A stretch of 64,000 nucleotides of DNA from a virus. This document shows positions 4,206 through 27,881 of this stretch, piece by piece. The stretch is from the IMG/VR virus record IMGVR_UViG_3300049718_000055, positions 24,633-88,632 of that record. One strand, written 5' to 3'. Position 1 is the first letter of the stretch; each line of letters starts with the position of its first letter. Made by a program: the position numbers and the translations under genes. The notes below the pieces were generated by a model. It saw nothing but the letters and a program-made list of their open reading frames with translations. It had not been told where the DNA came from and made no database searches.

Positions 4206-7200
4206 CTACTTCGGGGGTGGTTGGATCTTCTTCGTGCCGGACCATTCGTTTACCTTCGGGATCGTCCCAAGAGGCCATGCAATCCGCTTCGCCTCTTTTG
4301 CTGATTCCTTTTCCAGATTCTTCCCGAACTTCTTTACCGTGGGGTTCTTCAATTTGCTGGTGTCATCTGCGGCTTTGGGAACAGTCGAACCGGCCATGAA
4401 AATATCCTTGTAGATGCTTCCCACCAAACGATCCAATTCGTCGGTTGCCATGTACCCCATCATCTTATACAGCTTCTTCTCTTCTCCCTCTGCGGCCATC
4501 ATGCCAATATCTGTCCACATCTTCATTCTGTCGTTCGCCATGCCGATGAAGAGGCTATCCAGACAGATTTTAAGGGCTCCGGACCATGGATGCTTCTCTA
4601 AGTCCCTGTAATCTTCCAGTAAATTATCCCAACTGTCCCTCGTGTGAGATTGTCCCGTTGCTCCCTCAAATGCTTTCTGAGCCCCGTGCTTCACTCCCGC
4701 CTTCAGATTCATTAAGGCAAATCCAGCGGCCGGATAAAGCAAGAAAAACGGCAACAGTGGTCTGAAGTTGCGATGATGGAATACCTCATCAAAATACCAT
4801 TCCTTGATCCCCGAATAACTCTTGATCTGGAATGACTGAAGGTTGTAAGCTGCGTGTGCTACGGCATGGAGATTCTTTTCCGCATCTCCAAGACCTTCAG
4901 ACATACTCAGTTTTGCCATTCTCGGCATCTGTTCCGGCTGCTCTGTGAATGCAACTTTGTTGGCAAACACCCTTTCGGCCTTCCACTTCGATTCTTCGTC
5001 CCAGCGGTTGTTTGCCACGGCCTTATTGATCTCGTCGTCGCTCAATAGCATACGATCTTTCAATAAACGCCTTGAAGTCTCTGCCCGCTTTCCCCCAGCT
5101 TTCAAATCGCTGAGAACGTCAAGGTCCATCCATGCCCAAGCAATCTCTCCAACGGTAGCCCGCTGCCAGTTGTAAACATCGCTAAATCCTGTTGCTTTTA
5201 GCATTTCCTTGGCTACACCAAAGTTCTTTCCTTCAATCAGCGCAGGATTCATTCTCGGCGTTACAACCCCGACATAAAACTTTTCACGCATTCTCTCCTT
5301 CGGATGACGAAACATCCTATAATTTCCGACAAACCACGGCTTGAGACCGAGTTGTCCGGCATGAACATTGTGGAATGCAACCGAGATCGGAGACAGGCTC
5401 ATCTTCGTGATGACCTCGAAAGGCTGCATGAACCGATACATTCTTCCAACCCTTGTGTTCCAGTCTTGATACTCAAAATACAGCTTCAAGTTTTCTGTCA
5501 AATCTTTTCTCAATGCAGAACTAGGAACGTCGGCAATCAAACTGCCAACCTTGCCCATGTCGTGACCGAGCGTGGACTCTAACGCTACTGCGCTTCCAAG
5601 CTGGTCGAAATACTTATTCAATGCCCAAATATCTTTCTTATAGAACGGATGATTAACCGTCCTTTTCGTGGTTACATTCGGGTTTCTAGGACGCTTCAAG
5701 CGGCGCTCACGGTCTCTGCTTAACTCCCCAAGCCAACGATGCGCATCTCCCGTTCCTACTTTCAATCTCTGTCTCTCCTTTTCGAGATAGCGCAACTTTG
5801 CTACATCGTCGAGAGTTTTATCGTCGCAAACTTCCGAAAGAGTCCTTATCTCTCCTGTCTCCGAGTCCGTCAATTCCATGTCCCAGTCTGTTTCATGGGG
5901 CATATAATGCGGGTTGTTTGGAACATCATATATGCTGCCGTCTTCCCGATGTACACCTTCTTTAGTTGCCAACTCGTTCGCTTCATCCATCAACAGACGC
6001 AATTCCTCTGCGGCTTTGTTGATACGAGGATCGTTCGATGCTACACGCCCCTCTTTAACATCCCACACTTCGCGTACATCGTCATGACCCGGCCTACGCA
6101 GCCACTCCTTAACCTTCCCTTCCACTGGACCGTCTGAATTCCATTCCAATTTGTTCTCTTTGAAAATATCAATCAAACGCATCTGGAAGTTTCCAGAGAT
6201 TCCCATTTGTTTCTGCTGATAGTCGTCAAGTTTGTCAAAAACCGCTCCGGTCTTTTCTAAGTACCCGCTCTTTCTCGATACGCCCAAAGCCCTCATCCTG
6301 AAGTTCATGCCAAGAGTACGCTTCTGATAGTTTGCATATTCCTTGTCAAACCAGCGCCTCACCTTGTCTTGCATACCGATTTTTCTAGCCGCATTGATAG
6401 CAGGAATCCTGATCTTTTCTTTGATTCTCTGACCGAAAGTAGGCTCTTCCGACTCTCCAAGCCTGCGCTCTTCAAGGCCGCTCGTGTCTCTGCCAAGCAT
6501 CTTCTTTGCATGATAGAGAGGGCCAGACCACTCGCCCGTTTCGGGATCATAGGTAAAACCGTGACTCTGAAGTTCGCCCTTCATTGCGTAGCTTCCAGCT
6601 TCGGCAGGGTCAATGCCCTCTGGGGTTATACCGGCCACTTCTGAGGCGTGTGCAGCCCCAAGAGCGATGGTTTCCTTTGGGATGTCTGGATTCTTCGCCG
6701 CGGACTCGGCTATGTCGTTGATTGCCTTTTCCGCTTTCACGTTCGTCGGAGGCGGAGTAAAGGCTCTTTCCTTGTCCTGGTACATATTGGTCCAGTCCGC
6801 CCCCTCCTGAGCCCCAGTCCTCAAGCCCTTGTTCATTGCCTCCGATGCCGGCGGAATCTGGATTGCATCCCAACTGTCGATTCCTACCACTCTGCCGGCG
6901 TGACGCACTCCAAAGTCTGCGGCCTTGACCTCGATTTCGTTGCCGTTCGCAAAATTCAATGTGTCCTGCTCGGCCCGCGTCCTCTCCACGTCGCTGTAGT
7001 TCTCCATTGCCGTAGCAAGAGAGTCCTTTATGCCATGCACGGCCGCACGAATAGACCGCATCCTCGGAGCCACAAGTTCCTTCATAATCCTGACCTGCGG
7101 CGCCGCGTCGGTCCCAAGGAAAACTACATGGACATCGGACTTGGTTCCGTCTCTCCACGGCCTGCCAAGGGTCTGCTCTAACAGCACTCCAGAGTAAGGC

Positions 7201-10200
7201 GGTCCCAACACATACATCAATCTCGGCTTGTCACCTTTCGTGTCGTTCCAGTCGCTTCCGATACCTCCAGCCGGGATGCTCAGGTAGGCCATCGGAAGTT
7301 TCCCGTCTTGGAAGTCTTTTCGCACCTTTTCACGCCCGGTATCCGACTGGTTGACGCCGCTGTAGTTTCCAATCTTATCCCCGAATTCTGCCTGCAACGC
7401 ATCGAAGACGTTCGGAAGTCTTGGAAGCAATCGGCTAAACTGGCCGTTCATGGCGTCATCCATCTGCTGAAATGCAGTTGGTTCACCGCTTCTCTCTTTC
7501 CTGAACAAGTCCTCATCTGTGGTCGGAGACGCGATGATTATGCTGTACCCCTTCTCTATGTCCCTCTTTGCCATTTCAATGACATTAGGAATCATTTCGC
7601 GCTCAAGAAACGCCTTCGTGAACTGCGCTTCGTATGCGGAAATACTTTTTGGAGATAGCCCCTCGGTAAGTTTTGTACGTGTCCGCGCTCTTTCCATCAG
7701 ACCGGAAATCGTGTCAAGGCCGCGCTTCATGGCGCTTGTCATCGGCACAAATCCAAAGTGGACATTGAACCCCTCGTAGGAGAGAGTCTGCGATACCATC
7801 TGGCCGCGTTGGATCAACTGCTGGCGCAACTTTGCCATCTTTACAGGATCGAGTTCGGCTACCAGCGTCTTGTCTTTGTAGTAAGTCTTGAAATTGCTCT
7901 TCAGGAATTCCTCGTATCCGCCCTTCTTCCAGAGTCCTAACTTCTCAAGGTATCCAACCTCCAGCGGAGTGTGGAATGGAGTTGCGCTCATGTACACGCC
8001 CTTCTTGGCGTTTTGCATGATCGCCATGAGCATTTGACCTTGGCTCATGCCCTTCTTATTCTCTGCTTTCTTGAACCAGTTCCTTGCCTCTCCTGCCTCA
8101 TCCGCAATCACCATATCCCACTTGATGTTCTGGTACACGGGGTTTCTTAGAGCCGTCTGATAGCTCACTCCATACGTTCCGTTCTCGATTCCAAATTTTG
8201 GAGTATCGAGACTGAGGTCAACGCCAAATGCTTTTGCCGGTTCATCTGCGGTTTTCTCCAATAATGGACGGTTGCGGGTTATGTATAGGGTCAACGGCTT
8301 ATCGCCGGCCTCTCGGTCTCGTCCAAACTCGCTGATAATCCCCATCGCTGTCCAGGTCTTGCCCGTTCCTGTTCCGCTGGCAACCAACGCTCCGTCGCCG
8401 CGCTGCAATGCCGACATAACGATCTGTACCGTAGGTGCCTGACCGGGATGCTTGTCTTCGTCGAGAATCCTTGCCGTCCGCTCAGTAATAGCCCAGATCG
8501 GAAGAGGAGACTCTGTAGACATCCCCGCTTTGCCAGTCCGCTTCTTCCACGATTCTTCCGTTTCAGGGGCATCGTCCGCCGTCTTGCCGACAACCGGATC
8601 GTTCGTCTCCCTCAACGGAAGCATTCTGATCGGCTCAACGCGGTCTACACCGAATCCTCGTATGGCGGGACTTCCTCCGGCTCCGTCATGTCGTGGCATC
8701 CCCAACTCGGTTTTGCCAGAAACTCTGTCAACTGTTGGAGGTCTTTGAATTCCAGCAGCCTCATGAGTTCCTTCTCGTACTCGGTTGGCTCTCTCATTTT
8801 TTCTTTCCTCCATCACCTTATGCGCTAACTCAGGATCGGTCTTCGGAGCACGTTCTTCCGTTCCGTATTCCGCTGCGATTTTGTTTTCAAGGTCGTCAAT
8901 CTGCATCTGCAAAAACTGCTTGTCGAGAATCTTGTGGCGCGGCAATGCGGAAAGTTCTCTCTTCAATTGGTTTCGACGTGCTCCCATCTCTCCGCGAGTT
9001 TCAGGCTGTGATTCTTGGAACATGACGGTCGGCGGAACATTCCCTTTAGTGTTGAACTTTACACCCCAATTGCCATCGTCCATCTCTATCAACTGCGCTG
9101 CATCAGCCTGAATTCCCGACGATCCATACCTCGTCTCTCGGCCTATAGGAGTGAAAGCCATAACAGCCTTCGCGTAATCGTCAAACGCAAAAACTACGGT
9201 TTTACCTGGGATGTTCTTTACATCCTTCGCGCCTTCGTGAGTACGGGCCTCAATCACCCCTTTCACATCACGGCGGACAAAGATTGCCCCTGTATCTTTT
9301 CTTGCTTGCTCAATCGGATCTACAACATCCGAAGGATTCTTTATCCTCTTCTTGGCTTTTTCAGCCGCTTCGGTTTCGGTCAGAAACTCATCTGCCGGGT
9401 CCATGCCCGTAACATGGTAGATGCGGTCTAGTGTCTCCTTGGCATCGTCCGTCACTCTAAACGGACGAAGCGGGTCTTCACGCCACTTCTTGTAGACCTG
9501 CTGGAATATCTCCTTCAACTTCGCAAGAATCTTCCCGGTCTCAGCAGAGAACAACTTTGGATTCTCGTCGCGGTTATATTTCTCAATACCCCCAATAGCT
9601 CTTTCGCTGAATTCTTCAAGAACTTTCCCAACTAAATCTGCCCTGCTTTTTCCATCCCAAAGCGCCTTCGTCGGTCCCGTGATCGTATTCAAGGCGCGAA
9701 GGTCTTCATCGCTCAAAAAAGGCAAGAATGCGTGCCATAGTTCATGCGTGACAGTCGTCTTGTCAGCCTTCTCGTGGAGATACACACGCGATGTTTTACC
9801 GATTTCGTCCCACTCGGTTCGTCCCCTGCCTCTCTCGAAGTATTTGTCGCGCTCTATGCTGCTGAGAATCTTTTTCCTCTCAAGAACCCACTTCAGAGCG
9901 TCTTTGCGTTCAACCCCCTCCGGTTTCTCAAACTCCCAAATTGCCTCTGAAACCAGATGGAAGTTCTTCATGTGCCATTTTGCGTTTTCCTTCGTTGATT
10001 CATCAGCGTAGACAAACGTCTTCAATCCTTCGTAATCAACATAGCCCTGCTCGCGCACTTGATTGAGCAACACATCCTTGGCAACTTCTTTTTCGCTACG
10101 AGTCTTCGGCGGCGGCTTGATTCCCTTTTCCGTTTCGGCCTTCGGTTCGGCTGGTGGCTCGATTCCAATTTTTGGAATCTCTTCTGCTTTTACCTCTGGC

Positions 10201-13200
10201 TGCGGTTCTGGCTTCTTCTCCTCTTTAGGAGCCTCATAACGGTTTTGCAGAGCCGCTTCAAATTCCTCCTGCGTTACCGGCTCAAACTTCTTCCCCTGTG
10301 ATTTTGCGATCTTCTCCAACTCTGGACGAAAAGCAACATTGAAATAGTCCGCGGCGGTGTGGAGTTCTTGCCCTTCTACTTTCGGAGCAAACAACATTTC
10401 CATCCCCGGCTCACCAACAATCATGTCATTCAAGGCGCCATTGAGACGTGTCGTTTTTGAATCAAGAAGAGCGACATAGACAGCTTGCGTAACGCGGCTC
10501 GGCTCGTCTGGTTTACCTAAGAAGAAATCTCCGTTCCCATAGACGTGATTCCATGCCGGTATCGGCTTGTCGCCTTCTCTCCTGAATCTTCGAGTCTTTG
10601 CCGCCGCCGAAACAGCCTCAGTAACTTTCTCTGTGAGACCTGGATAATAAGCTCTCAGTGCTGTTACCGATCCAATTGCCTTTGTCAGAGAGGATTCTGC
10701 ATCAGTTCCGCTTATCAGCCGCACAGACTCTACATCTAGAATATGAGATCCGACAAGAGCGAGAACAAACTTATCCTTCCCCGCCTTGTTGAGAGTGGCA
10801 TCCTCCCCAACGCTATCGAACCATGCCGCATTTTCGGTAGGTGGAATATGGAAATACTCTCTAGCTTTTTTGGCAAACCAATACGGATCATCGTCAATCG
10901 CCGCTCTTACGGTCGAGATGTCGTTGCCAGCTATTTTACTGGCAATCTCACTTAGGATTCCATCCTTCCCATCCAAACGCTCTTGATGGTCGGCATCGGA
11001 AAGTAGTTTCCCGTTGCTTAACGCCTCTACGTTTTCTCCTACCTGGGCGGAACTGCGGTCGTTGAATAATCTTCCAATTCTAGCCGCTTCACCCACGGTG
11101 TCTATCGGCTTATCCAAGACCCGTACAGGGATGTAGGTTCTTCCATCATCGGGAACGTGTTTAATACCTACCTTAGCGGAGAACTTTGCTACGGCATCAT
11201 TGAAAACAATCATTTCCGCATCGCGGGCCTTCGTATCCCCCATCCGAGAAATGTTCTCAAGCCACTTCTTGAGCCGTAGAAGTCTTGTGTTCCCTCCAAT
11301 TACACGGCCATACGAATCGAGAATCGCTGGACCATTCTCCGGCCCATATCCTGTATCAAAATAAAGCCGATGCGTGAAGTTTTCAGGCTGAGCTTCCCCT
11401 AAGACATCTTTCGTCCGATTCTCATCGAAATCTCTGTACTGCATTTCCTTTGGAACATACTCTTCGTTGTCCTCCAGATTGTTTCCATTCCACCTGTGAG
11501 AGACAATAGGAGCTTCAATGTCCATAAGAGCGTACTGCCCCGGGTGAGATTCCTTCCCTTTGTTGACCTGGGTAGGATCGCCACGACGGGCTATAAGAAT
11601 TCCCCCTCCACTTGGATAATCGCCCTTACCTGCGGCTTTCCCTACCGCATCCGCGGTTTGCTGCACTGCACGATGAAGCGTGTCCGTTGCCTCTTTTACG
11701 GCTTGTGCCCTCTTGTCAATATCCTGTTCCGTAGTGCCGGCGTTGACATCAAACGCATCACCTATCGACCGAACAACCTCAGCAACAGCGGCCTCCTGCC
11801 GACCCTCTGCCGCCTGAACGTACTCCTTTGCCTCTTCCGCGTTACGAGGTTCCGGCGCGGGACTTCCCGCCCTGTCATTGACCCCTTGAGTCGCTTGCCG
11901 ATTGTTCTCAACCCACACGGATTTAGATGCGGCCTCCGCTAACTGCTCCGGCTTATTGAAAACGATGCTGTCTCCCTTGCCAACAATCCTGCGCACTACA
12001 TCGCTTGGGTTTAAGGGATTGAGGTCGTGCTGTGCGCCTCCAGAGGAAAGATACAAGTCTCCGTTTTTCCTCTCGCTTACGGTCCAAGTGCGCCCCTTCC
12101 AGTTAGCGTCTTGAACTGTGTTCCCCGGCTGCAACTGAGCGATCCTCGCCAGAGGATCTTCGCTGCCAGAGAGTTTCTGACGAACCAATGCTTCGACCGG
12201 AACACCTTCCCTGTCGGCTACCTCTTGAAGTCTTCCGGCCGCATATTCAGGATTGCTTGCCCAACCAGCGTCTCCGACCTGGGTGAGAAGATTTATAAGT
12301 GACTGCTCGGTGTCTGGCGCCGGACCCTGCTCTCCCTCTTGCGGATTTGTGCGCTCTGCGCGGCTCTGCCGGCGCCGGTTCGAGTAATCCCTCACACGCG
12401 CCAGTTTCTCTTCAGGAATAGGCTCTGCCCCTGTCGCCAGCAACTCTTGGTCAATCGAAGCAACCGCCCGCTGTGCGTCCCTGTCCCGCTCTTCCCGAGA
12501 CAACCTTTCTTCTCTTGTCATCTCCCCGTAGCGGATACGTCCATAAGCCGCTAAATTCATTGCCAGATTAGAGTAAATTCCATCCTTCTTCAAAGGAATT
12601 TTTTGTCCATCTGGACCATGAAGAAGCCCGTCGGCCCCAAGTTCCCAAACATTGCCTCTGCGGTCAACAATCCTGTCTCCAGACCGCGTGAGCATATTCA
12701 GGTTTTCGTTGGTCAGATCCCATGCAGACGCTTCAGCCTGGGAGAGAGTCGCATCTTTCTTCTCGTAGTCCACTCCAGACTTTTCAAAGGCTTCATCGAA
12801 TTCGTGGTTGAATTGCTCTCTTCCATTTGCGAACGGACCTTCTACGCCCTCACCACGAGCAGCGTCATGCTCGTCTGGTAGACGCTCATCACCGCCAATC
12901 CCGGTCATGTCTTGAGCGTGGCGAGAATCAATTTCCTTCGCAATCAACTGCTCTGTGACATTTCCTAGATGATCTTCCTTTGCGGCATCTTCGGCTGTTG
13001 TGGTCCTGAGAGCTTGAATCTTGGCAAGCGTTCTCGCCGACTCCTCATCCTCAACACTCGCGGCCGTCTCTGCTGATCCGAAGTACCCTGTGGAATTTAG
13101 ATACTGCTTCTCCCCTGTTTCCTCGTCTTGGACATAAACCCCAAACCCGCTGCCGACTGGCTCGACGCCGATATACGCTTTCTGCTCAAGACGGGTTACG

Positions 13201-15050
13201 GGGCCATAAACCTCTTCGCCATCAACAACCGTCTTCGGAATTACTTCCGTGGCTTGTGGGCGCGGAGTCTCTTTCTCACGCTCCTCTCTAGCCTTTACGT
13301 TCCGCTGCCTTGCGGCCTCGTTGTCGGAAATGATTTTCTCGCGCTTTACTGTCTCCGCCTTTTTGTTCTCCTCTACGGCTTTGCGGATTGACTCCTGAAC
13401 CGCGCTCTCATGCTGCCTTGCAACAAGCTCTTCCCGGTCTGCATGGATTTTCCTTACAGCCCGTTCCGCCGCAATCGGATTCCAGGATTCTCTTAATGCT
13501 GTGCTGTGACGATATTGAATCCGTTTCAGGTTTCTTTCGTCTGCCTTCCCTATGAGATCATGCGCTCTCTGGAAATAAGGGTCATCGTTCCATACCTTGT
13601 CGAGTACAATCGACTGCTCTTGCGGAGTTTTTAATTGCCCAAATTTCTTCCCGTCAAATAGTTCCTTAGAGGCATCATCAAGATGGCTCGTGACTACCGC
13701 CTTGGCAGCATCTTCTTTAATTCCATGCGCCAGCATTGCAAGATTGCCAAGACCGGAAAGGCCAAATTCAAGCGTTTCTGAAATATCCCCCTTCTTTGCC
13801 GCTTCCATTGTCTGCTGATAGTCCTGCCCTACTCCAGCGGCCATCTGAATCTTGAAGCCATAATCAGCAAGAGTGGAGACGGTTCTGACTGTTCTCGCAA
13901 CAGCAATAGGAGCTTCCCATCCCATTTGTTCTGGAAGGCTTGCGCCCCGTGAGGCCACGATAATAGCCACCATTGCAGGATTGGTTAGAGTTTCCCCAAG
14001 CCGCATCGAGGCATTTGAAATTCCGGCATTACCTTTTGCTACTATTCCTTTCCACTTACTTGTCTCTCCAACCCTGTCGGCCCATGTATTGTTTTTTGCC
14101 CTGATAAGGTCTGTGTCCCCTCCTTCAATACCTACGGATTTTGATGCGAGAGAGACTAGGTTGGGATGCTCCGCGTGTGGCTCTGGAATGCCCAGCAGTC
14201 TAGCGGTATTCGCTATTCCTCCCTTGATTTCATCCCACCAATTTCCGCCGGCAACTTCGAGCCTCTTCGTTGCTCTGGCAAGATCGGTAAGTCCTGCGTA
14301 TTCCTGCTTTCGCTCCTCATTCCACCCTTGCTCACTGGCATAGGCATACCCTTCAGCATAGTGCTTCGCATACTCCTCTGGGGTAGAAAATGAGTGATAC
14401 GCTATCTCCGCCGGGTCCGCAATTGTACGAGAGGTGTCAAAGCGATGATTTTTAAGGTCTGATTCTTCTTTTGCCTTGTGATCTTGCGCCCTCTTCAATG
14501 CGCTCTGGTATACGCCTCCCTGCTCATCTGGCGTGAGGGTTTTCTTCTCTGCATCTTCCCACTGCAAAGACATAGCATATTCTTCACCCCTTGCGGGATT
14601 TAGATGATGCAGTTGCACACCATCCCTGTATCGGCTGACTCTTTCAATTGCCCTGTCTTTGCTTTGCCCTTCGTTTATAGTGCGGGCATAGATTCTCTGC
14701 TCGGGTGTCATCCACGAATCGTCATACGTTCCGCTCTGCATACTGCGGGCATTTTCCGATTCGACTGACGAAGGCCCAATTGTCGCATGGTGAGGGCCGG
14801 CGCCTGTCGCTTGGAGAATCTTTTCCTGTGGGGTCTGAACAGCGGTTGCACCGTGCTTTTCAGCCAGTGCCGCGAAGTCTGTCTTTGGGGTCTTACTTAC
14901 ATTTTGAATAACAGGTTGGGCAGCTTGAGACTTCGACGAACCTCCAAATTGCTTGGCGAGACTCTGGTAATCGACGTTTGGGCCTTCCTTCTTTTGCCCA
15001 ACTACGCCACCAAATTGTCCTGCGAGTTTTTCATAATCAGTCGGCATCAC
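4206..15050 (-). CDS. Giant polyvalent virion/ejection protein: ParB-like domain, HExxH metallopeptidase, Strawberry-notch/DarB-like SF2 helicase
   Basis: 3614 aa. GPAILDSYGRVIGGNTR (ParB-like); THELWH; GDGALVASGTGTGKT, IADEAG, SATP, AGGIG, QTLGRPWR helicase motifs. Last gene of the virion module. Confidence 0.8.
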   Translation of the reverse strand: MMPTDYEKLAGQFGGVVGQKKEGPNVDYQSLAKQFGGSSKSQAAQPVIQNVSKTPKTDFAALAEKHGATAVQTPQEKILQATGAGPHHATIGPSSVESENARSMQSGTYDDSWMTPEQRIYARTINEGQSKDRAIERVSRYRDGVQLHHLNPARGEEYAMSLQWEDAEKKTLTPDEQGGVYQSALKRAQDHKAKEESDLKNHRFDTSRTIADPAEIAYHSFSTPEEYAKHYAEGYAYASEQGWNEERKQEYAGLTDLARATKRLEVAGGNWWDEIKGGIANTARLLGIPEPHAEHPNLVSLASKSVGIEGGDTDLIRAKNNTWADRVGETSKWKGIVAKGNAGISNASMRLGETLTNPAMVAIIVASRGASLPEQMGWEAPIAVARTVRTVSTLADYGFKIQMAAGVGQDYQQTMEAAKKGDISETLEFGLSGLGNLAMLAHGIKEDAAKAVVTSHLDDASKELFDGKKFGQLKTPQEQSIVLDKVWNDDPYFQRAHDLIGKADERNLKRIQYRHSTALRESWNPIAAERAVRKIHADREELVARQHESAVQESIRKAVEENKKAETVKREKIISDNEAARQRNVKAREEREKETPRPQATEVIPKTVVDGEEVYGPVTRLEQKAYIGVEPVGSGFGVYVQDEETGEKQYLNSTGYFGSAETAASVEDEESARTLAKIQALRTTTAEDAAKEDHLGNVTEQLIAKEIDSRHAQDMTGIGGDERLPDEHDAARGEGVEGPFANGREQFNHEFDEAFEKSGVDYEKKDATLSQAEASAWDLTNENLNMLTRSGDRIVDRRGNVWELGADGLLHGPDGQKIPLKKDGIYSNLAMNLAAYGRIRYGEMTREERLSREERDRDAQRAVASIDQELLATGAEPIPEEKLARVRDYSNRRRQSRAERTNPQEGEQGPAPDTEQSLINLLTQVGDAGWASNPEYAAGRLQEVADREGVPVEALVRQKLSGSEDPLARIAQLQPGNTVQDANWKGRTWTVSERKNGDLYLSSGGAQHDLNPLNPSDVVRRIVGKGDSIVFNKPEQLAEAASKSVWVENNRQATQGVNDRAGSPAPEPRNAEEAKEYVQAAEGRQEAAVAEVVRSIGDAFDVNAGTTEQDIDKRAQAVKEATDTLHRAVQQTADAVGKAAGKGDYPSGGGILIARRGDPTQVNKGKESHPGQYALMDIEAPIVSHRWNGNNLEDNEEYVPKEMQYRDFDENRTKDVLGEAQPENFTHRLYFDTGYGPENGPAILDSYGRVIGGNTRLLRLKKWLENISRMGDTKARDAEMIVFNDAVAKFSAKVGIKHVPDDGRTYIPVRVLDKPIDTVGEAARIGRLFNDRSSAQVGENVEALSNGKLLSDADHQERLDGKDGILSEIASKIAGNDISTVRAAIDDDPYWFAKKAREYFHIPPTENAAWFDSVGEDATLNKAGKDKFVLALVGSHILDVESVRLISGTDAESSLTKAIGSVTALRAYYPGLTEKVTEAVSAAAKTRRFRREGDKPIPAWNHVYGNGDFFLGKPDEPSRVTQAVYVALLDSKTTRLNGALNDMIVGEPGMEMLFAPKVEGQELHTAADYFNVAFRPELEKIAKSQGKKFEPVTQEEFEAALQNRYEAPKEEKKPEPQPEVKAEEIPKIGIEPPAEPKAETEKGIKPPPKTRSEKEVAKDVLLNQVREQGYVDYEGLKTFVYADESTKENAKWHMKNFHLVSEAIWEFEKPEGVERKDALKWVLERKKILSSIERDKYFERGRGRTEWDEIGKTSRVYLHEKADKTTVTHELWHAFLPFLSDEDLRALNTITGPTKALWDGKSRADLVGKVLEEFSERAIGGIEKYNRDENPKLFSAETGKILAKLKEIFQQVYKKWREDPLRPFRVTDDAKETLDRIYHVTGMDPADEFLTETEAAEKAKKRIKNPSDVVDPIEQARKDTGAIFVRRDVKGVIEARTHEGAKDVKNIPGKTVVFAFDDYAKAVMAFTPIGRETRYGSSGIQADAAQLIEMDDGNWGVKFNTKGNVPPTVMFQESQPETRGEMGARRNQLKRELSALPRHKILDKQFLQMQIDDLENKIAAEYGTEERAPKTDPELAHKVMEERKNERANRVREGTHEAAGIQRPPTVDRVSGKTELGMPRHDGAGGSPAIRGFGVDRVEPIRMLPLRETNDPVVGKTADDAPETEESWKKRTGKAGMSTESPLPIWAITERTARILDEDKHPGQAPTVQIVMSALQRGDGALVASGTGTGKTWTAMGIISEFGRDREAGDKPLTLYITRNRPLLEKTADEPAKAFGVDLSLDTPKFGIENGTYGVSYQTALRNPVYQNIKWDMVIADEAGEARNWFKKAENKKGMSQGQMLMAIMQNAKKGVYMSATPFHTPLEVGYLEKLGLWKKGGYEEFLKSNFKTYYKDKTLVAELDPVKMAKLRQQLIQRGQMVSQTLSYEGFNVHFGFVPMTSAMKRGLDTISGLMERARTRTKLTEGLSPKSISAYEAQFTKAFLEREMIPNVIEMAKRDIEKGYSIIIASPTTDEDLFRKERSGEPTAFQQMDDAMNGQFSRLLPRLPNVFDALQAEFGDKIGNYSGVNQSDTGREKVRKDFQDGKLPMAYLSIPAGGIGSDWNDTKGDKPRLMYVLGPPYSGVLLEQTLGRPWRDGTKSDVHVVFLGTDAAPQVRIMKELVAPRMRSIRAAVHGIKDSLATAMENYSDVERTRAEQDTLNFANGNEIEVKAADFGVRHAGRVVGIDSWDAIQIPPASEAMNKGLRTGAQEGADWTNMYQDKERAFTPPPTNVKAEKAINDIAESAAKNPDIPKETIALGAAHASEVAGITPEGIDPAEAGSYAMKGELQSHGFTYDPETGEWSGPLYHAKKMLGRDTSGLEERRLGESEEPTFGQRIKEKIRIPAINAARKIGMQDKVRRWFDKEYANYQKRTLGMNFRMRALGVSRKSGYLEKTGAVFDKLDDYQQKQMGISGNFQMRLIDIFKENKLEWNSDGPVEGKVKEWLRRPGHDDVREVWDVKEGRVASNDPRINKAAEELRLLMDEANELATKEGVHREDGSIYDVPNNPHYMPHETDWDMELTDSETGEIRTLSEVCDDKTLDDVAKLRYLEKERQRLKVGTGDAHRWLGELSRDRERRLKRPRNPNVTTKRTVNHPFYKKDIWALNKYFDQLGSAVALESTLGHDMGKVGSLIADVPSSALRKDLTENLKLYFEYQDWNTRVGRMYRFMQPFEVITKMSLSPISVAFHNVHAGQLGLKPWFVGNYRMFRHPKERMREKFYVGVVTPRMNPALIEGKNFGVAKEMLKATGFSDVYNWQRATVGEIAWAWMDLDVLSDLKAGGKRAETSRRLLKDRMLLSDDEINKAVANNRWDEESKWKAERVFANKVAFTEQPEQMPRMAKLSMSEGLGDAEKNLHAVAHAAYNLQSFQIKSYSGIKEWYFDEVFHHRNFRPLLPFFLLYPAAGFALMNLKAGVKHGAQKAFEGATGQSHTRDSWDNLLEDYRDLEKHPWSGALKICLDSLFIGMANDRMKMWTDIGMMAAEGEEKKLYKMMGYMATDELDRLVGSIYKDIFMAGSTVPKAADDTSKLKNPTVKKFGKNLEKESAKEAKRIAWPLGTIPKVNEWSGTKKIQPPPK

Positions 15051-21521: not shown

Positions 21522-22031
21522 CTAAGCCGGGGTTGTAAATTGCACTGCCACGCTTTGCGTGAGTTGGGCCGGCGGAACGACAGCGTTCGTGGTGATTGTG
21601 AACGCCTGAGTCCAGGTCGAAACCACGCCGTCATTATCAGTGACCGTGGCAGCAGCCGTTCCAGTGACAGCGCCGGCCGAGGCCGCTACGCCGGTAACAG
21701 TGGCGGTCAAGCCGTCAGCATTGAGAACCACGGTCGCGGACGGGTCCGAGAACGTGTACGAGACGGCAGAGAGTACGCCGCCAGAGAGGGTGACGCCATC
21801 GGCCAAAAGGGGCTGAATGGACGCCTGCGAAGTTTGACCAACATTGAGGGTCAAAGCATTGTTTGCCATGGGTGAGTCTCCTGTGAAACGAACTTCGATT
21901 GAGTAGGTTGCGAGTTTGGGTTTGAGTTCACGGCGAATCTCTCTGAGCAACCGCTCAATCCGATGTCTTGCATAGAGCGTTGCCCATTGACATTCTAAAA
22001 TTTCACGTAATTGTTCGAGTGGATTCTCCAA
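21522..22031 (-). CDS. Ig-like domain protein (two in-frame starts, 22031 and 21869)
   Basis: LTLNVGQT..SDPSATV..DGLTATVTGVA Big_2-like domain; RBS before both starts. Confidence 0.65.
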   Translation of the reverse strand: MENPLEQLREILECQWATLYARHRIERLLREIRRELKPKLATYSIEVRFTGDSPMANNALTLNVGQTSQASIQPLLADGVTLSGGVLSAVSYTFSDPSATVVLNADGLTATVTGVAASAGAVTGTAAATVTDNDGVVSTWTQAFTITTNAVVPPAQLTQSVAVQFTTPA

Positions 22032-22096
22032 ATGGTCCCTCCACCAATCTCTTAACTACACTATACCACTACATTTTGAATCTGTGGTGAGCAATA

Positions 22097-22180
22097 TGGA
22101 GCGGGGGACGGGATTTGAACCCGCGTGTCTCTCGACGGCAGCTTGGAAGGCTGCTGACCTACCAGTTGGTCATCCCCCGC
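22097..22180 (-). tRNA. tRNA-Gly(TCC), long variable arm
   Basis: GCAGC-CT TCC AA-GCTGC; TCCA end. Confidence 0.9.
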
Positions 22181-22185
22181 AAACT

Positions 22186-22259
22186 TGGTGCTCCCCGCAG
22201 AAATCGAATCCGCATTGGCCGATAATCGGTCGGCTTTCCTACCATTGGAAGAGAGGAGC
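22186..22259 (-). tRNA. tRNA-Ile(GAT), C33/T37
   Basis: GCCGA-CC GAT TA-TCGGC. Confidence 0.85.
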
Positions 22260-22260
22260 A

Positions 22261-22334
22261 TGGGGCCGGGAGCGAGAATCGAACTCGCGCCTCATCCGTA
22301 CCAGGGATGCAGTCTCCCACTAAAATATCCCGGC
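22261..22334 (-). tRNA. tRNA-Thr(GGT)
   Basis: CATCC-CT GGT AC-GGATG. Confidence 0.9.
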
Positions 22335-22340
22335 TCTACT

Positions 22341-22418
22341 TGGTGCGGATGGCAGGACTCGAACCTGCGGTAATTCTTCTTTGTAGGAGAAGCGGCGTCG
22401 CCACTGGCCCACATCCGC
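22341..22418 (-). tRNA. tRNA-Val(TAC), C33
   Basis: CTTCT-CC TAC AA-AGAAG. Confidence 0.85.
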
Positions 22419-22423
22419 AAAAC

Positions 22424-22501
22424 TGGTACTCCCGGTTGGACTCGAACCAACATCAATCCACTTACGGACACTCGCTTCGGAGGCGAGACCGATACGGGAG
22501 C
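22424..22501 (-). tRNA. tRNA-Arg(CCG), no canonical D-arm
   Basis: CTCGC-CT CCG AA-GCGAG; 7-nt connector. Confidence 0.85.
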
Positions 22502-22506
22502 ATAAC

Positions 22507-22583
22507 TGGGGCCGCTGGCCGGAATCGAACCGGCGTCATCCAACTACTCTTGCCGGTTTAGGAAACCGGAGAGATACAGCGGC
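22507..22583 (-). tRNA. tRNA-Arg(CCT), no canonical D-arm
   Basis: CCGGT-TT CCT AA-ACCGG; 7-nt connector. Confidence 0.85.
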
Positions 22584-22587
22584 AAAC

Positions 22588-22664
22588 TGGCGCTCCCGGC
22601 AGGAGTCGAACCCGCGTCATCCGTCTACGGCCTCCTGTTTAGAAGACAGTGCCGATACGGGAGC
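22588..22664 (-). tRNA. tRNA-Arg(TCT), no canonical D-arm
   Basis: CTGT-CT TCT AA-ACAG; 7-nt connector. Confidence 0.85.
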
Positions 22665-22666
22665 AT

Positions 22667-22752
22667 TGGTGGAGCCGGTGGGACTCGAACCCACATTGGG
22701 TTACCCCGCTGATTAAAAGTCAGGTCTCTGCATCCAATTCGAGTACGACTCC
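22667..22752 (-). tRNA. tRNA-Lys(TTT), long variable arm
   Basis: CTGA-CT TTT AA-TCAG; V hairpin GGG-TAA-CCC. Confidence 0.9.
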
Positions 22753-22758
22753 GAAACT

Positions 22759-22833
22759 TGGTGGGTCGCCGGGGAATCGAACCCCGCTCTTTCGATTAAG
22801 AGTCGAGTGCATCGCCGACAATGCTTGCAACCC
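22759..22833 (-). tRNA. tRNA-Lys(CTT)
   Basis: TCGA-CT CTT AA-TCGA. Confidence 0.9.
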
Positions 22834-22836
22834 ACA

Positions 22837-22930
22837 TGGTAGGGGATGAAGGTGTCGAACCTTCCCGTTGCGCTAATCTGGCGCTCTCCAGAGTTTATAA
22901 GACTCCGCCGCACGGCCGATGCTATCCCCC
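22837..22930 (-). tRNA. tRNA-Ile(TAT), long variable arm
   Basis: GGAGT-CT TAT AA-ACTCT; V hairpin GCGC-CAGATTA-GCGC. Confidence 0.85.
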
Positions 22931-22936
22931 AAAACT

Positions 22937-23008
22937 TGGTGCCGCGCCTGAAAATCGAATTCAGCAAACAGGGTTATGAATCCTGCGTTCTCTCCAGAGA
23001 TGCGCGGC
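22937..23008 (-). tRNA. tRNA-Met/Ile2(CAT), small D-arm
   Basis: CAGGA-TT CAT AA-CCCTG. Confidence 0.8.
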
Positions 23009-23009
23009 T

Positions 23010-23083
23010 TGGCAGGGGATACAGGACTCGAACCCGTAAATTCCGCTCTGGAGGCGGACGTTTTTCCATTAGACTAATCCCCT
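23010..23083 (-). tRNA. tRNA-Trp(CCA)
   Basis: TCCGC-CT CCA GA-GCGGA. Confidence 0.92.
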
Positions 23084-23095
23084 ATGTCAAAGAGC

Positions 23096-23121
23096 ATAAA
23101 AAACCCGCTCCTGAGAGCGGG
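23096..23121 (-). terminator. Attenuator terminator, operon 1
   Basis: CCCGCTC-TCAG-GAGCGGG-TTTTTT, upstream of tRNA-Trp. Confidence 0.9.
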
Positions 23122-23148
23122 CCTGTCGCAACAAAAACGCAGCAGACC

Positions 23149-23220
23149 CTAAAACACGACTCCCCAAATGACCCGCTTCCCGGTCATTCTGGTTATCACG
23201 TGTTTGGTCCTGATCTGCAT
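23149..23220 (-). CDS. Leader peptide 1 MQIRTKHVITRMTGKRVIWGVVF
   Basis: AGGTGG RBS; codons match all 12 downstream tRNAs. Confidence 0.85.
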   Translation of the reverse strand: MQIRTKHVITRMTGKRVIWGVVF

Positions 23221-23240
23221 GAATTCCCACCTGCAAGTAC

Positions 23241-23269
23241 AGCGTACATCAACTTTCCGTTTTGTGCAA
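23241..23269 (-). promoter_or_regulatory. Sigma70-like promoter P1
   Basis: TTGCAC-17-TACGCT. Confidence 0.75.
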
Positions 23270-23273
23270 CTGC

Positions 23274-24458
23274 TCAGTCCTTGTAAGGATCAAATTCACG
23301 GGCAGATGCCATAGCCACTCCGACCGGGGTCAACACGTGAAGAACTTTGATCGAATCTCCACACGCCGCAAGAACTCCGTCTAGCCGTTTGTAGCAGTCT
23401 GGAGATTCGTCTAACCCGGCGCCACGCAGTTCAATTCCGGCCTTCCTTACCCATCCATCCATCATCTCCTGAGTTACTCTTCCAGGGCGCTTGCACTCGC
23501 CTGTCTTGCGGTCGAAAGTCCCCTTCGCCTCCATGCGACCCATTGCACGGCCAGCGCCGTGAACGGTTGAGTAAAGGCTGTACTTGGCATCCTCGTTCTC
23601 CATGCCCTCCAAGATGACGGACTTCTCGCCCATCGTTCCTCCAACGAATCCCTTCTGTCCAGGGAACGCCGGAGTGGCTCCCTTGCGAACAACCCACAGC
23701 ATCTCACCACCATGCTCTTCCCGCCATGCGAAGTTGTGATGGTTGTGAACCTCTTCAATAGCCTTAGCTCCAAGAATCTTAATCACGCGGTCGCAGACCC
23801 AGTTCCTTCCTGCATAAGCGTACTCGCCGGCAAGAGACATAGCCTGTAGATATTCGCTGCCTAGTGCGCTGTCTACCGACAAGACACATGGCTCCACATC
23901 CATTCCGTCTTTTGCTCCTGCTGCTTTCAAAAACCACGTTGCAATCTTATGCCCGAGGCCGCGAGAACCGAAATGAACACCCACCCAAACGCGGTCTTCT
24001 TCGTCTGTAAAAAGATCTACATAATGGTTTCCAGAACCCAAAGTCCCAAGTTGCTGATGAGCCATTTCCTTGAGCGGGGAGGTCATTGAAAGACTCCAGG
24101 CATCATGCTCGAAAACCTGATCGTCTACACGCTCGTCGTCATTCTTTCTCCCAACCCCAAAACTGACTATATTCCATACGTCATCCATTATCGGCTTGAT
24201 GCTGCCACGCAACATCCAGCCTTCCATGTCGGTCAACACGGCCTTGTTTCCACAGCCGATGTCGTATCCCACTCCGGTTGGGCTGATGGAATTTCTATAA
24301 GCCACAACACCGCCAATGGGCACACCGTACCCAAGGTGGTTATCTGGCATCAATGCCACTTTGTCCGCGGTTTTCGCACAGGTCCGAATCTGGTTGAGAG
24401 TCTTTTCTTCAGCTTCCCCAAATACCGGTATAGTTCCATCTACTAACTGCATCCCCAT
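23274..24458 (-). CDS. rtcB: RNA ligase RtcB
   Basis: PDNHLGYGVPIG, VGYDIGCG, GTLGSGNHY, HNHHN, RKGAT, HGAGR, DESPDCYK; start revised to follow the GGAGG RBS. Confidence 0.97.
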   Translation of the reverse strand: MGMQLVDGTIPVFGEAEEKTLNQIRTCAKTADKVALMPDNHLGYGVPIGGVVAYRNSISPTGVGYDIGCGNKAVLTDMEGWMLRGSIKPIMDDVWNIVSFGVGRKNDDERVDDQVFEHDAWSLSMTSPLKEMAHQQLGTLGSGNHYVDLFTDEEDRVWVGVHFGSRGLGHKIATWFLKAAGAKDGMDVEPCVLSVDSALGSEYLQAMSLAGEYAYAGRNWVCDRVIKILGAKAIEEVHNHHNFAWREEHGGEMLWVVRKGATPAFPGQKGFVGGTMGEKSVILEGMENEDAKYSLYSTVHGAGRAMGRMEAKGTFDRKTGECKRPGRVTQEMMDGWVRKAGIELRGAGLDESPDCYKRLDGVLAACGDSIKVLHVLTPVGVAMASAREFDPYKD

Positions 24459-24473
24459 ACCCTCCTTTTTATT

Positions 24474-24548
24474 TGGTGAGCGCGGAGGGAATCGAACCCC
24501 CATCGTTGCGTTCGTAGCGCAGCACTCTATCCGTTGAGCTACGCGCCC
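24474..24548 (-). tRNA. tRNA-Arg(ACG)
   Basis: TGCG-CT ACG AA-CGCA; canonical D-arm with GGA. Confidence 0.92.
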
Positions 24549-25210: not shown

Positions 25211-25759
25211 TCAGTTAAACGCATACCTCTTATCACCTTCGGAGTCCGTGAATAAAAACGGACCCCACTCATTTACCTCGGCGCCGAGAGACCTCAACAA
25301 AAATCGCGGCGTGTGAATCGACTGCGGCAGCGGCCGGCGAAGCAACTTCATTCCAGCTTCCTCCGGCGTCCGGTCGGCCTTGCGGTGATTATCTTTGGCG
25401 CAACATGAAACCAAGTTGCTCCACGATGGCGATCCTCCTCTTGACTTTGGAATTATGTGGTCAAGAGTTAGTTCGCTAGTCTTGAACCTTTCTCCGCAAT
25501 ACATACACCTTTCTCCGTCACGAAGAAAAATGTTCTTGCGGCTTACAACTTGAAGCCTAATTGGGACGTGGCGATAAGCGCGAAGCCTGATTACCGATGG
25601 AGCATAGATTCCAAGTCCGCGATGGATAAGTACATCGGTAGGAACCTCAACCAGAGCAACACCTTTCGTAATAAGAGTCAGAGCCTTCTTAACTGAAACT
25701 ATGCGAAGCGGCTCATACGATGCATTGAGAAGAAGTGTTGCGCTTTTTCCTATTGTCAT
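25211..25759 (-). CDS. HNH endonuclease (McrA-like, tRNA-array-associated type)
   Basis: LLLNASYEPL..PSVIRL..RDGERCMYCG..LTLDHIIPKSRGG..WSNLV..N. Confidence 0.93.
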   Translation of the reverse strand: MTIGKSATLLLNASYEPLRIVSVKKALTLITKGVALVEVPTDVLIHRGLGIYAPSVIRLRAYRHVPIRLQVVSRKNIFLRDGERCMYCGERFKTSELTLDHIIPKSRGGSPSWSNLVSCCAKDNHRKADRTPEEAGMKLLRRPLPQSIHTPRFLLRSLGAEVNEWGPFLFTDSEGDKRYAFN

Positions 25760-26531
25760 AGTCACCACGCTCCCAACGTTCTTTCAGTAAAGCAGACATC
25801 TTCGCCTTAGTTTCTTCCTTGTGCTTCATACCTTTGTTTCCAGGTACTCTGCCTTTCCTGATTGCCGACTGTTTAGCCCGTGTTTCTTCGGAAGCCTTTT
25901 TACCTGTCAGAGAGCGAGAAATCTTTGCTTTACTCTCTTCTGAAAGTTTCCTTCGTCTGTTCGCCGCAGAAATCTTCTCACTAAATCCCTGCGGTTTAGG
26001 TCTCCCCTTCAAAGCAGCAGATCGTTTTGCTTTTTCTTCCTCCGACATTGGGCCTAATTTCCGGCCCCTAAATGATGCCGACATACGCGCTTTGGTTTCT
26101 TCCGAACGCTTTGAACCAGTCCTAGATTTAATCATCTTGGCTATCGCCTCTGCTGTGTGTCTCAATCCCTTATGCACAGCAGATACTTTCGCTTTCATTT
26201 CGGCTGTTCTAACCGCTCCTGATCCTCCCTCGCCCCCATCTGTTCTATTTCTCAAGCATCCAGTTCCAAGGTTAATTCTCCCATGGAATTTTATTAGCTG
26301 CTTCTCCATGAAAAACGCTTCGTCCTCTGACAAATCTTTGGCAATAATTACAATCATCGATTTATCTTTTGGAGTACGTATCGCTTCAATAGGATTTTTC
26401 TTATAGGCTCTTAACCCGTGTCCTTTCCCTATGTAATAAGGAGAACCCGCTGGGCCGTGTTCGGAGGCAAAAGTCCTCACGTATTGGTATACGTAAAACC
26501 CAGAGATTACAGGTCTCCTATAGTTACTCAC
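25713..26531 (-). CDS. GIY-YIG homing endonuclease with NUMOD3 repeats
   Basis: FYVYQY..PYYIGKG..R..NRTDGGEG, repeated SEETKAKMS; start revised to GTG 26531 because a tRNA lies upstream. Confidence 0.88.
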   Translation of the reverse strand: MSNYRRPVISGFYVYQYVRTFASEHGPAGSPYYIGKGHGLRAYKKNPIEAIRTPKDKSMIVIIAKDLSEDEAFFMEKQLIKFHGRINLGTGCLRNRTDGGEGGSGAVRTAEMKAKVSAVHKGLRHTAEAIAKMIKSRTGSKRSEETKARMSASFRGRKLGPMSEEEKAKRSAALKGRPKPQGFSEKISAANRRRKLSEESKAKISRSLTGKKASEETRAKQSAIRKGRVPGNKGMKHKEETKAKMSALLKERWERGDYDNRKKRNTSSQCIV

Positions 26532-26555
26532 TGTCTTACTCTCTTTCCTTAAAAG

Positions 26556-26630
26556 TGGAGCCGGGTAGCGAAATCGAATCGCTGTCTGTGGGATACGAAT
26601 CCACTGCTCTGCCATCTGAGCTAACCCGAC
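26556..26630 (-). tRNA. tRNA-Thr(CGT)
   Basis: GTGGA-TT CGT AT-CCCAC. Confidence 0.9.
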
Positions 26631-27225: not shown

Positions 27226-27302
27226 TGGTAGGGTTGGTGGAACTCGAATCCACTAGGACATGATTGAAGGTCATGGTGCTCGTCCGCTTTGCATTCAACC
27301 CC
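27226..27302 (-). tRNA. tRNA-Glu(TTC), C33
   Basis: CATGA-CC TTC AA-TCATG. Confidence 0.87.
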
Positions 27303-27791: not shown

Positions 27792-27881
27792 TGGAGGAAG
27801 GTGGAGTAATCGAAACCCTACGCCATCGCTGACGCACCACGGTTTTCAGGACCGTTCGCCGACCATTCAGCGGCACCTTCC
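27792..27881 (-). tRNA. tRNA-Ser(TGA), 8/4 fold
   Basis: GGAAGGTG/CACCTTCC 8-bp acceptor, 4-bp T-stem, ACGGT-CC TGA AA-ACCGT. Confidence 0.85.

Follow-up and report, generated by a model that had tools for sequence, protein, structure and literature searches.

The order of the cloverleaf arms is among the most invariant features in biology, and the exceptions that we know of are mitochondrial arm losses or changes in helix length. Metazoan mitochondria contain D-armless tRNAs, such as mt-tRNA-Ser(AGY) and the nematode mitochondrial tRNAs, a group covered by a review (PMC4394434). These tRNAs have lost G18 and G19 together with the lock between the D-loop and the T-loop, and their variable regions are short. 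In the circularly permuted and split tRNA genes of Cyanidioschyzon merolae and Nanoarchaeum, the segment order departs from that of the cloverleaf, and processing yields an ordinary mature tRNA. Allo-tRNAs and tRNA-Sec (8/4, 9/3) are natural departures from the 7/5 cloverleaf that standard finders handle poorly; one study makes use of 9/3 allo-tRNAs (PMC7590224). Here we describe three tandem genes of a phage that are very probably working arginine tRNA genes (anticodons UCU, CCU, and CCG) built on a core that is not a cloverleaf, and to which we refer as rewired. They lie in a 64,000-nucleotide stretch of DNA (the window), part of the 88.6-kb IMG/VR virus record IMGVR_UViG_3300049718_000055, whose completeness is estimated at 91%.

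Architecture of three tandem tRNA-Arg genes

The three genes occupy positions 22424–22664 on the minus strand, each with an encoded CCA, and gaps of only 2–5 nucleotides (nt) separate them from one another and from their neighbors. Each has a 7-base-pair (bp) acceptor stem, a 5-bp anticodon stem (with one A·G mismatch in Arg-UCU), a 7-nt anticodon loop with U33 and A37, and a 5-bp T stem in a GTTCGA T arm. The acceptor and anticodon stems are separated by 7 nt in every case, with no D hairpin between them, and the spacing from the anticodon stem to the T stem is 18 nt in Arg-UCU and Arg-CCU and 19 nt in Arg-CCG, compared with the 4–5 nt of a class I variable region. Arg-UCU parses as GCTCCCG-TAT-CGGC-ACTGT-CTTCTAA-ACAGG-AG-GCCG-TAGACGGATGAC-T arm-CGGGAGC-G-CCA, the core of Arg-CCU as TAT-CTCT-CCGGT-TTCCTAA-ACCGG-CA-AGAG-TAGTTGGATGAC, and that of Arg-CCG as TAT-CGGT-CTCGC-CTCCGAA-GCGAG-TGT-CCG-TAAGTGGATTGAT.

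A first-pass annotation of this DNA had placed the three genes here, with the 7-nt connector and the 18–19 nt region, and the minus-strand parse reproduces all of these exactly in each gene. The pairings that it drew between the connector and the post-anticodon strand are likewise correct to the base: CGGC/GCCG (4 bp) in Arg-UCU, CTCT/AGAG (4 bp) in Arg-CCU, and CGG/CCG (3 bp) in Arg-CCG. We call this pairing helix X. Between its 3′ strand and the T arm lies a segment of 12–13 nt (TAGACGGATGAC, TAGTTGGATGAC, and TAAGTGGATTGAT, respectively), and the D-loop-like GGA motif noticed in that annotation is found there, after helix X, in all three genes.

With canonical class I tRNA-Arg, represented by RF00005 and the phage's own tRNA-Arg(ACG), the rewired genes share the 7-bp acceptor stem, the 5-bp anticodon stem, a 7-nt loop with U33, C35, and A37, the GTTCRA T arm, the CCA, and a D-loop motif A-R-YY-GG-A that includes A20, a determinant for arginyl-tRNA synthetase (ArgRS). 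They differ in lacking the D hairpin and in having a D-stem-like strand and the D-loop motif 3′ of the anticodon arm, where these replace the 4–5 nt variable loop. A short connector in the place of the D arm and an extended stack under the anticodon stem recall the mitochondrial D-armless tRNAs. In contrast to those, the rewired tRNAs keep the D-loop motif and a canonical T loop, their setting is a phage with bacterial synthetases, and their connector is not unpaired: 3–4 of its 7 nt pair, with covariation, with the post-anticodon strand. Allo-tRNAs and tRNA-Sec alter helix lengths within the usual arm order, whereas the core elements of the rewired tRNAs follow one another in a changed order.

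Permuted and split tRNA genes also depart from cloverleaf order, but in the rewired genes it is the interior that is rearranged, between normal ends, and the non-canonical form should therefore persist in the mature RNA. Alternatively, the genes could encode a permuted precursor that is made into an ordinary cloverleaf by cleavage and RtcB ligation: RtcB is encoded 770 nt upstream in the same array, and in the red alga C. merolae processing is known to repair permuted tRNA genes. Canonical order would, however, take two cuts and two joins inside the core, with the acceptor ends already in their normal place. Moreover, among 80 loci around RtcB relatives, only L002 and L023, besides the window, have a rewired tRNA within 6 kb. 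With just two rewired genes added by these 80 loci, there is no tight linkage to RtcB, and we give a permuted precursor almost no credence.

Helix X across a family of viral relatives

Relatives were collected from IMG/VR contigs by three pattern scans that differed in what was kept fixed: the loop together with the T arm in the first; the 5′ half and a YCT anticodon, with the loop free, in the second; and the loop with a non-A base after GG, with the anticodon free, in the third. The parsed set comprises at least 128 distinct Arg-type sequences (116 viral loci) and at least 50 Ile/CAU-type sequences (47 loci). Arg-type anticodons among the matches listed are TCT (98), CCT (21), ACG (4), CCG (3), and TCG (2).

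Within 28 Arg members, the inner pairs of helix X covary, one between CG and UA, one among GC, AU, UA, and CG, and one between GC and CG. For the rewired structure as a whole, 95% of cells in this 28-sequence alignment are paired, against 67% in shuffles and 38%–49% with slid partners. A further alignment, consisting mostly of Ile-clade genes (A5), again has several pair types at each of the three pairs of helix X, and across all members the helix takes the forms CGG/CCG, CTC/GAG, CCC/GGG, CAC/GTG, CAG/CTG, CGC/GCG, CGT/ACG, CCG/CGG, and more. The acceptor, anticodon, and T helices all covary across the family as well. These data support a rewired fold in which helix X would join the connector to the post-anticodon strand. 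More than 170 distinct relatives, through their covariation, support the permuted core originally proposed, with a D-stem strand and the D-loop transferred to the 3′ side of the anticodon arm.

A covariance model of the rewired fold (R1) was built from the 28 sequences, with the three window genes in the seed. As seed members, which match by construction, the window genes score 79–88 bits (E about 1e-22 to 1e-25); independent members score 47–91 bits, and every canonical tRNA scores 41 bits or less. The match of the three genes to the rewired fold is far beyond chance. Rfam 15 has no family for this design. With RF00005 in unfiltered mode the three genes reach 30.8, 35.0, and 35.1 bits, compared with a gathering cut-off of 29 and with 40–66 bits for their canonical neighbors.

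In a different parse, the three would lack a D arm and bear a variable-arm hairpin like that of class II tRNAs, with the connector of 7 nt unpaired and the 18–19 nt region folded on itself (for example, CCG-TAGA-CGG). A 3-bp hairpin of this kind can be drawn in Arg-UCU, in Arg-CCG, and in the commonest relatives (CCG-TAAT-TGG); 82% of cells pair under this reading, and other tRNAs of the array (Gly, Lys, and Ile-UAU) have unexpected long variable arms. However, no two-sided change occurs in any of its three pairs. Columns 38 and 39 vary (GTG, GAG, GGG, CTG, and others) while the GG partner is fixed, which breaks the hairpin pairs (9 and 6 unpaired cells); the bases in question covary with the 5′ connector instead, and no such hairpin is available to Arg-CCU in that register. 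The self-contained hairpin, having no support from covariation and breaking when the 5′ bases vary, was dropped, and we consider it highly improbable.

Gene finders mostly miss the design. ARAGORN has none of the three genes among its 24 tRNAs of the window and finds no cloverleaf in them, nor are they called as tRNA by a filtered cmscan with Rfam. These misses would also fit decaying tRNA pseudogenes or an artefact of assembly or rearrangement, and the Felix O1 genome paper does list “pseudo” tRNAs called by tRNAscan-SE (PMC3185647). Against decay stand the 128 or more distinct sequences of Arg type, in which every helix shows compensatory changes, and the orthologous triples in other phages. 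Exact contigs covering the three genes are present in other, independent runs from peat, so the genes are not an assembly artefact. Covariation contradicts this explanation, to which we assign a negligible probability.

A counterpart of the tandem is found at L112, a locus from a 138-kb viral contig, with the same UCU-CCU-CCG triple in the same order; its acceptor, anticodon, and T stems differ from those of the window by compensatory changes. Its Arg-UCU gene (L112:2107–2180) is nearly identical to that of the window. The orthologs of Arg-CCU (L133:1051–1124 and L112:2190–2264) have compensatory changes in the anticodon stem and the 15:48 pair, and those of Arg-CCG (L112:2273–2346 and L133:1133–1207) have them in the acceptor, anticodon, and T stems; L133 thus carries rewired CCU and CCG. 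In L002, which has the closest RtcB relative, a rewired UCU gene lies beside a canonical CCU gene.

The family extends to cultured phages. A 79-nt Arg subtype occurs in 268 cultured-phage records, covering Escherichia (141), Salmonella (53), Klebsiella (40), Streptomyces (8), and Campylobacter (5), plus Felixounavirus and others; most copies are unannotated and a few are labeled “tRNA-OTHER.” The Ile scaffold matches 77 Streptomyces phages, nearly all under no annotation among the matches listed. BLAST of the three window genes, of the 10 kb around them, and of a common 75-nt relative against cultured phages gave no match. About 33 loci in bacterial assemblies carry family members. Most of these lie in metagenome bins, in which phage contigs may be mis-binned, and they were not used for naming a host. 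Two isolates have the gene in phage-like surroundings. In an isolate of Devosia riboflavina, the rewired gene adjoins a tape-measure protein, and in one of Brucella cytisi its neighbors are a helicase and other PHROG hits, so that the latter locus is probably a prophage.

Two variants stand apart in form. A subtype of 80–82 nt (L156:3917–3996, L156:5499–5578, and L161:1156–1237; anticodons TCT, TCG, and ACG) starts with TAG/TAA-CC and has GCTG-AAAAT after GGA. Its post-loop bases can pair with the first connector bases, and the D-like loop would then be a bulge in one long helix. In a rewired Arg-UCU gene at L136:12124–12198, the anticodon loop is apparently 8 nt long (CCTTCTAT).

The relocated D-loop and amino-acid identity

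After helix X, every member carries TA-R-N(1-3)-GG-N, including those from the scan that left the loop free; all members listed by that scan, which fixed the 5′ half and a YCT anticodon, have TA-R-N(1-3)-GGA. GG and GTTCRA are kept in every parsed member, GG having been forced by two of the three scans and not by the loop-free one. The R of this motif and the last Y before the T stem are A:T in 120, G:C in 7, G:G in 4, and A:C in 1 of 132 sequences, and they differ between Arg-CCU orthologs (G…C in the window, A…T in L112). The two positions covary in the manner of the Levitt 15:48 pair. Covariation in homologs, which had been set beforehand as a test, is found both in helix X and in the R…Y pair.

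The base that follows GG differs between the two branches of the family. Among the matches listed, it is A in 127 of 128 sequences with an Arg anticodon and T in all 50 with a TAT, GAT, or CAT anticodon, and all 50 of the latter have A as discriminator. A gap-free alignment on one scaffold accommodates twelve Arg genes and eleven Ile/CAU genes, all 77 nt long, and the consistent differences between the two groups are the anticodon, the base after GG, and the discriminator. In bacteria, arginine identity resides mainly in A20, with C35, U/G36, and A/G73, and isoleucine identity includes U20 and A73 (PMC9976931). All three window genes have A directly after GG in the relocated loop and C35 with U36 or G36 in the anticodon (TCT, CCT, and CCG). 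Their discriminators are G (Arg-UCU), C (Arg-CCU), and A (Arg-CCG); 132 sequences, nearly all of Arg type, have G in 65, A in 44, T in 19, and C in 4. The first-pass suggestion of a relocated A20 agrees, at the level of sequence, with the rules of the synthetases. The second and third scans are complementary in this comparison, as each left free what the other fixed, and the match of position 20 to the rules of both ArgRS and isoleucyl-tRNA synthetase would be difficult to account for if the relocated loop did not serve as a D-loop.

These features are consistent with a model in which the three genes would most likely be transcribed together with the surrounding block of 12 tRNAs and trimmed like their neighbors. 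The folded RNA would lack the usual D hairpin, with a strand of 3–4 nt passing directly from U8-A9-U into the anticodon stem. Helix X would stack beneath the anticodon stem, in the normal place of the D stem. Its 5′ strand runs on into that of the anticodon stem and would therefore sit where D-stem residues 22–25 normally lie; the 3′ strand would take the place of residues 10–13 and lead into the loop. A D-loop look-alike, U-A14-R15-NN-G18-G19-A20-…-A-Y48, would follow and run into the T stem, in effect a complete D-loop (A14, R15, N16-17, G18, G19, N20, and an A21-like A) fused directly to Y48. The contacts U8-A14, R15-Y48, and G18 and G19 with the T loop could then form as in an ordinary tRNA, A20 would be presented to ArgRS, and both the L-shape and arginine identity (A20, C35, and U/G36) would be kept despite the changed strand order. 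Charged by the ArgRS of the host, the three tRNAs would serve the phage as readers of AGA, AGG, and CGG. What is observed here are the sequences, a secondary structure with covariation, its conservation, and the tie between position 20 and identity; the three-dimensional mimicry, the charging, the decoding, and any selective reason for the design are inferred.

Several points weigh against this model. The fourth pair of helix X is unpaired in most relatives, so that the helix is just 3 bp in the family consensus, and Arg-UCU and Arg-CCU of the window belong to a 4-bp minority. Folding of single sequences is ambiguous: helix X is part of the minimum-energy fold for Arg-CCU alone, the minimum-energy folds are inconsistent among the three genes, and the folding z-scores are modest (−1.8 to −3.1); we did not use these folds as evidence. 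The split between A20 and U20 coincides with two clades and is not a count of independent events, and it may reflect as few as one. The tertiary mapping is reasoned from canonical tRNA geometry. Finally, no direct evidence of mature RNA, arginylation, or decoding was found for any family member. An exact 259-nt contig (22552–22810) does come from a metatranscriptome library, but DNA can be present in such libraries, and this is a weak hint of transcription. The matched runs are assembled contigs, which carry no RNA ends, strand, or expression level, and parts that they leave uncovered are uninformative.

Full-text searches, within the limits of the searchable literature, found no published description of the rewired architecture. 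New here are three isoacceptors in tandem, including a predicted reader of CGG, the conserved triple in relatives, and the side-by-side comparison of A20 and U20 on one scaffold.

Codon supply and the tRNA array

By ARAGORN and Rfam scoring, the genome has no other tRNA for AGA, AGG, or CGG. In 49 non-overlapping open reading frames (ORFs) of the window, these codons make up 18.9%, 18.8%, and 18.4% of Arg codons, respectively, and 56% together, so the three genes would cover more than half of all Arg codons in this phage.

This codon supply bears on whether the genes decode at all. They could instead be tRNA-shaped RNAs that act as decoys for host tRNA-directed nucleases, with the anticodon loop as bait, or as regulators. 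RtcB, an RNA repair ligase, lies in the array, which suggests that tRNA cleavage matters to the phage, and phage tRNAs are known to counter tRNA-targeting defenses (PMC10264068, PMC11464382). However, the phage has no other reader for 56% of its Arg codons, and selection acts on all features that charging and use on the ribosome require (a covarying 7-bp acceptor stem, encoded CCA, a normal T arm, A20, and C35). The family uses five different Arg anticodons, and in the Ile clade position 20 and the discriminator change together with the anticodon, which would be needless for mere nuclease bait. We judge a non-decoding role improbable and favor decoding by working tRNAs.

A wider proposal is that the rewired genes represent one alternative phage tRNA core topology, which may have arisen once and kept every tertiary contact and the “variable pocket” read by the synthetase. 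It would have been retargeted between Arg and Ile by changes in the anticodon and position 20, and retained for sustaining translation while escaping host factors that read the face of the D arm and variable loop, such as tRNA-directed defense nucleases. RtcB, the C33 anticodon loops, the exchanged variable arms, and a leader ORF with matching codons before the tRNA block would be the other components of a kit that protects this phage against tRNA depletion. RtcB in the array and the published phage tRNAs that counter such defenses make nuclease evasion a reasonable idea but nothing stronger. A single origin is possible because the Arg and Ile clades share one scaffold; the proposal as a whole is speculative and, in our view, rather unlikely.

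Should the working-tRNA model be correct, a large family under purifying selection would have a reordered core with the L-shape apparently kept, and tRNA topology would not be fixed by function. Structural biologists would have a natural strand-swapped tRNA, and genetic-code engineering a new, possibly orthogonal, scaffold. Because rewired genes are usually unannotated, phage tRNA inventories and analyses of codon compensation are incomplete; the authors of the Felix O1 genome paper noted that they would have expected a tRNA for AGA (PMC3185647).

A single minus-strand array, spanning roughly 22.1–28.3 kb of the window, contains every tRNA of the genome; ARAGORN finds 24 genes in it and Rfam several further ones (Table 1). 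The public runs that hold the DNA of the window are mostly metagenomes from peat, bog, and permafrost. A simple scan of 22000–23400 found no promoter-like site.

Table 1. Rewired tRNA-Arg genes, their core elements, and other features of the array, in window coordinates
Feature	Position	Strand	Remarks
Rewired tRNA-Arg(UCU), predicted to read AGA	22588..22664	minus	74 nt + CCA; R1 85.7 bits; RF00005 30.8 bits
Helix X 5′ strand CGGC, Arg-UCU	22651..22654	minus	runs straight into anticodon stem; pairs with 22628–22631
Helix X 3′ strand GCCG, Arg-UCU	22628..22631	minus	pairing; family covariation
Relocated D-loop TAGACGGATGAC, Arg-UCU	22616..22627	minus	proposed equivalents of A14, G15, G18G19, A20, A21-like A, C48
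Rewired tRNA-Arg(CCU), predicted to read AGG	22507..22583	minus	74 nt + CCA; R1 87.7 bits
Helix X 5′ strand CTCT, Arg-CCU	22570..22573	minus	pairs with AGAG at 22547–22550
Helix X 3′ strand AGAG and relocated D-loop TAGTTGGATGAC, Arg-CCU	22535..22550	minus	pairing; family covariation
Rewired tRNA-Arg(CCG), predicted to read CGG	22424..22501	minus	75 nt + CCA; R1 79.0 bits
Helix X 5′ strand CGG, Arg-CCG	22489..22491	minus	pairs with CCG at 22465–22467
Helix X 3′ strand CCG and relocated D-loop TAAGTGGATTGAT, Arg-CCG	22452..22467	minus	pairing; family covariation
“Leader 1” ORF, MQIRTKHVITRMTGKRVIWGVVF	23149..23220	minus	23 codons; just upstream of 12-tRNA block
RtcB RNA ligase	23274–24503	minus	inside tRNA array
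Canonical tRNA-Arg (ACG)	24474..24548	minus	sole canonical tRNA-Arg of genome; ARAGORN; RF00005 59.8 bits; ordinary D-loop AACGGATA

The short ORF “Leader 1” is preceded by a Shine-Dalgarno-like AGGTGG and followed by a terminator-like hairpin at 23124–23101. That it carries all three cognate codons, as first pointed out in the annotation, holds in the sequence: its Arg codons are AGG, AGA, and CGG, one each. As an argument for function, also made there, this is indirect; by arithmetic from the codon usage of the phage, three Arg codons would give exactly that set with a chance of about 0.04. A similar ORF follows RtcB in L002 (L002:7217–7285), with the Arg codons CGC, AGA, and CGG. “Leader 1” may be a leader-peptide attenuator of the tRNA operon. 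Its codons also include a cognate codon for every tRNA of the 12-tRNA block.

Other members of the array are unusual in their own ways. Three otherwise good cloverleaf tRNAs, none called by ARAGORN, have C33 instead of the near-universal U33 (22187–22258, 27226–27302, and 27796–27881, minus strand): an Ile-GAU-like tRNA (loop CCGAUUA, also with U37), a Glu-UUC (loop CCUUCAA), and a Ser-UGA (loop CCUGAAA). Class-II-like long variable arms are found on tRNAs normally without them (22097–22180, 22667–22752, and 22837–22930, minus strand), namely Gly-UCC (84 nt), Lys-UUU (86 nt), and Ile-UAU (94 nt); the last has a D region without GG and an extra arm with the 7-nt loop CAGAUUA. A tRNA with a CAU anticodon (22931–23008, minus strand), missed by both ARAGORN and Rfam, has a very small D arm (CUCU-GG-AGAG) and an A·C mismatch closing the anticodon loop. 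Also encoded within the array, on the minus strand, are an HNH endonuclease and a protein with a NUMOD3 motif (25211–25768 and 25713–26615), and a very long ORF of 3614 amino acids lies upstream in the window (4206–15050, minus strand).
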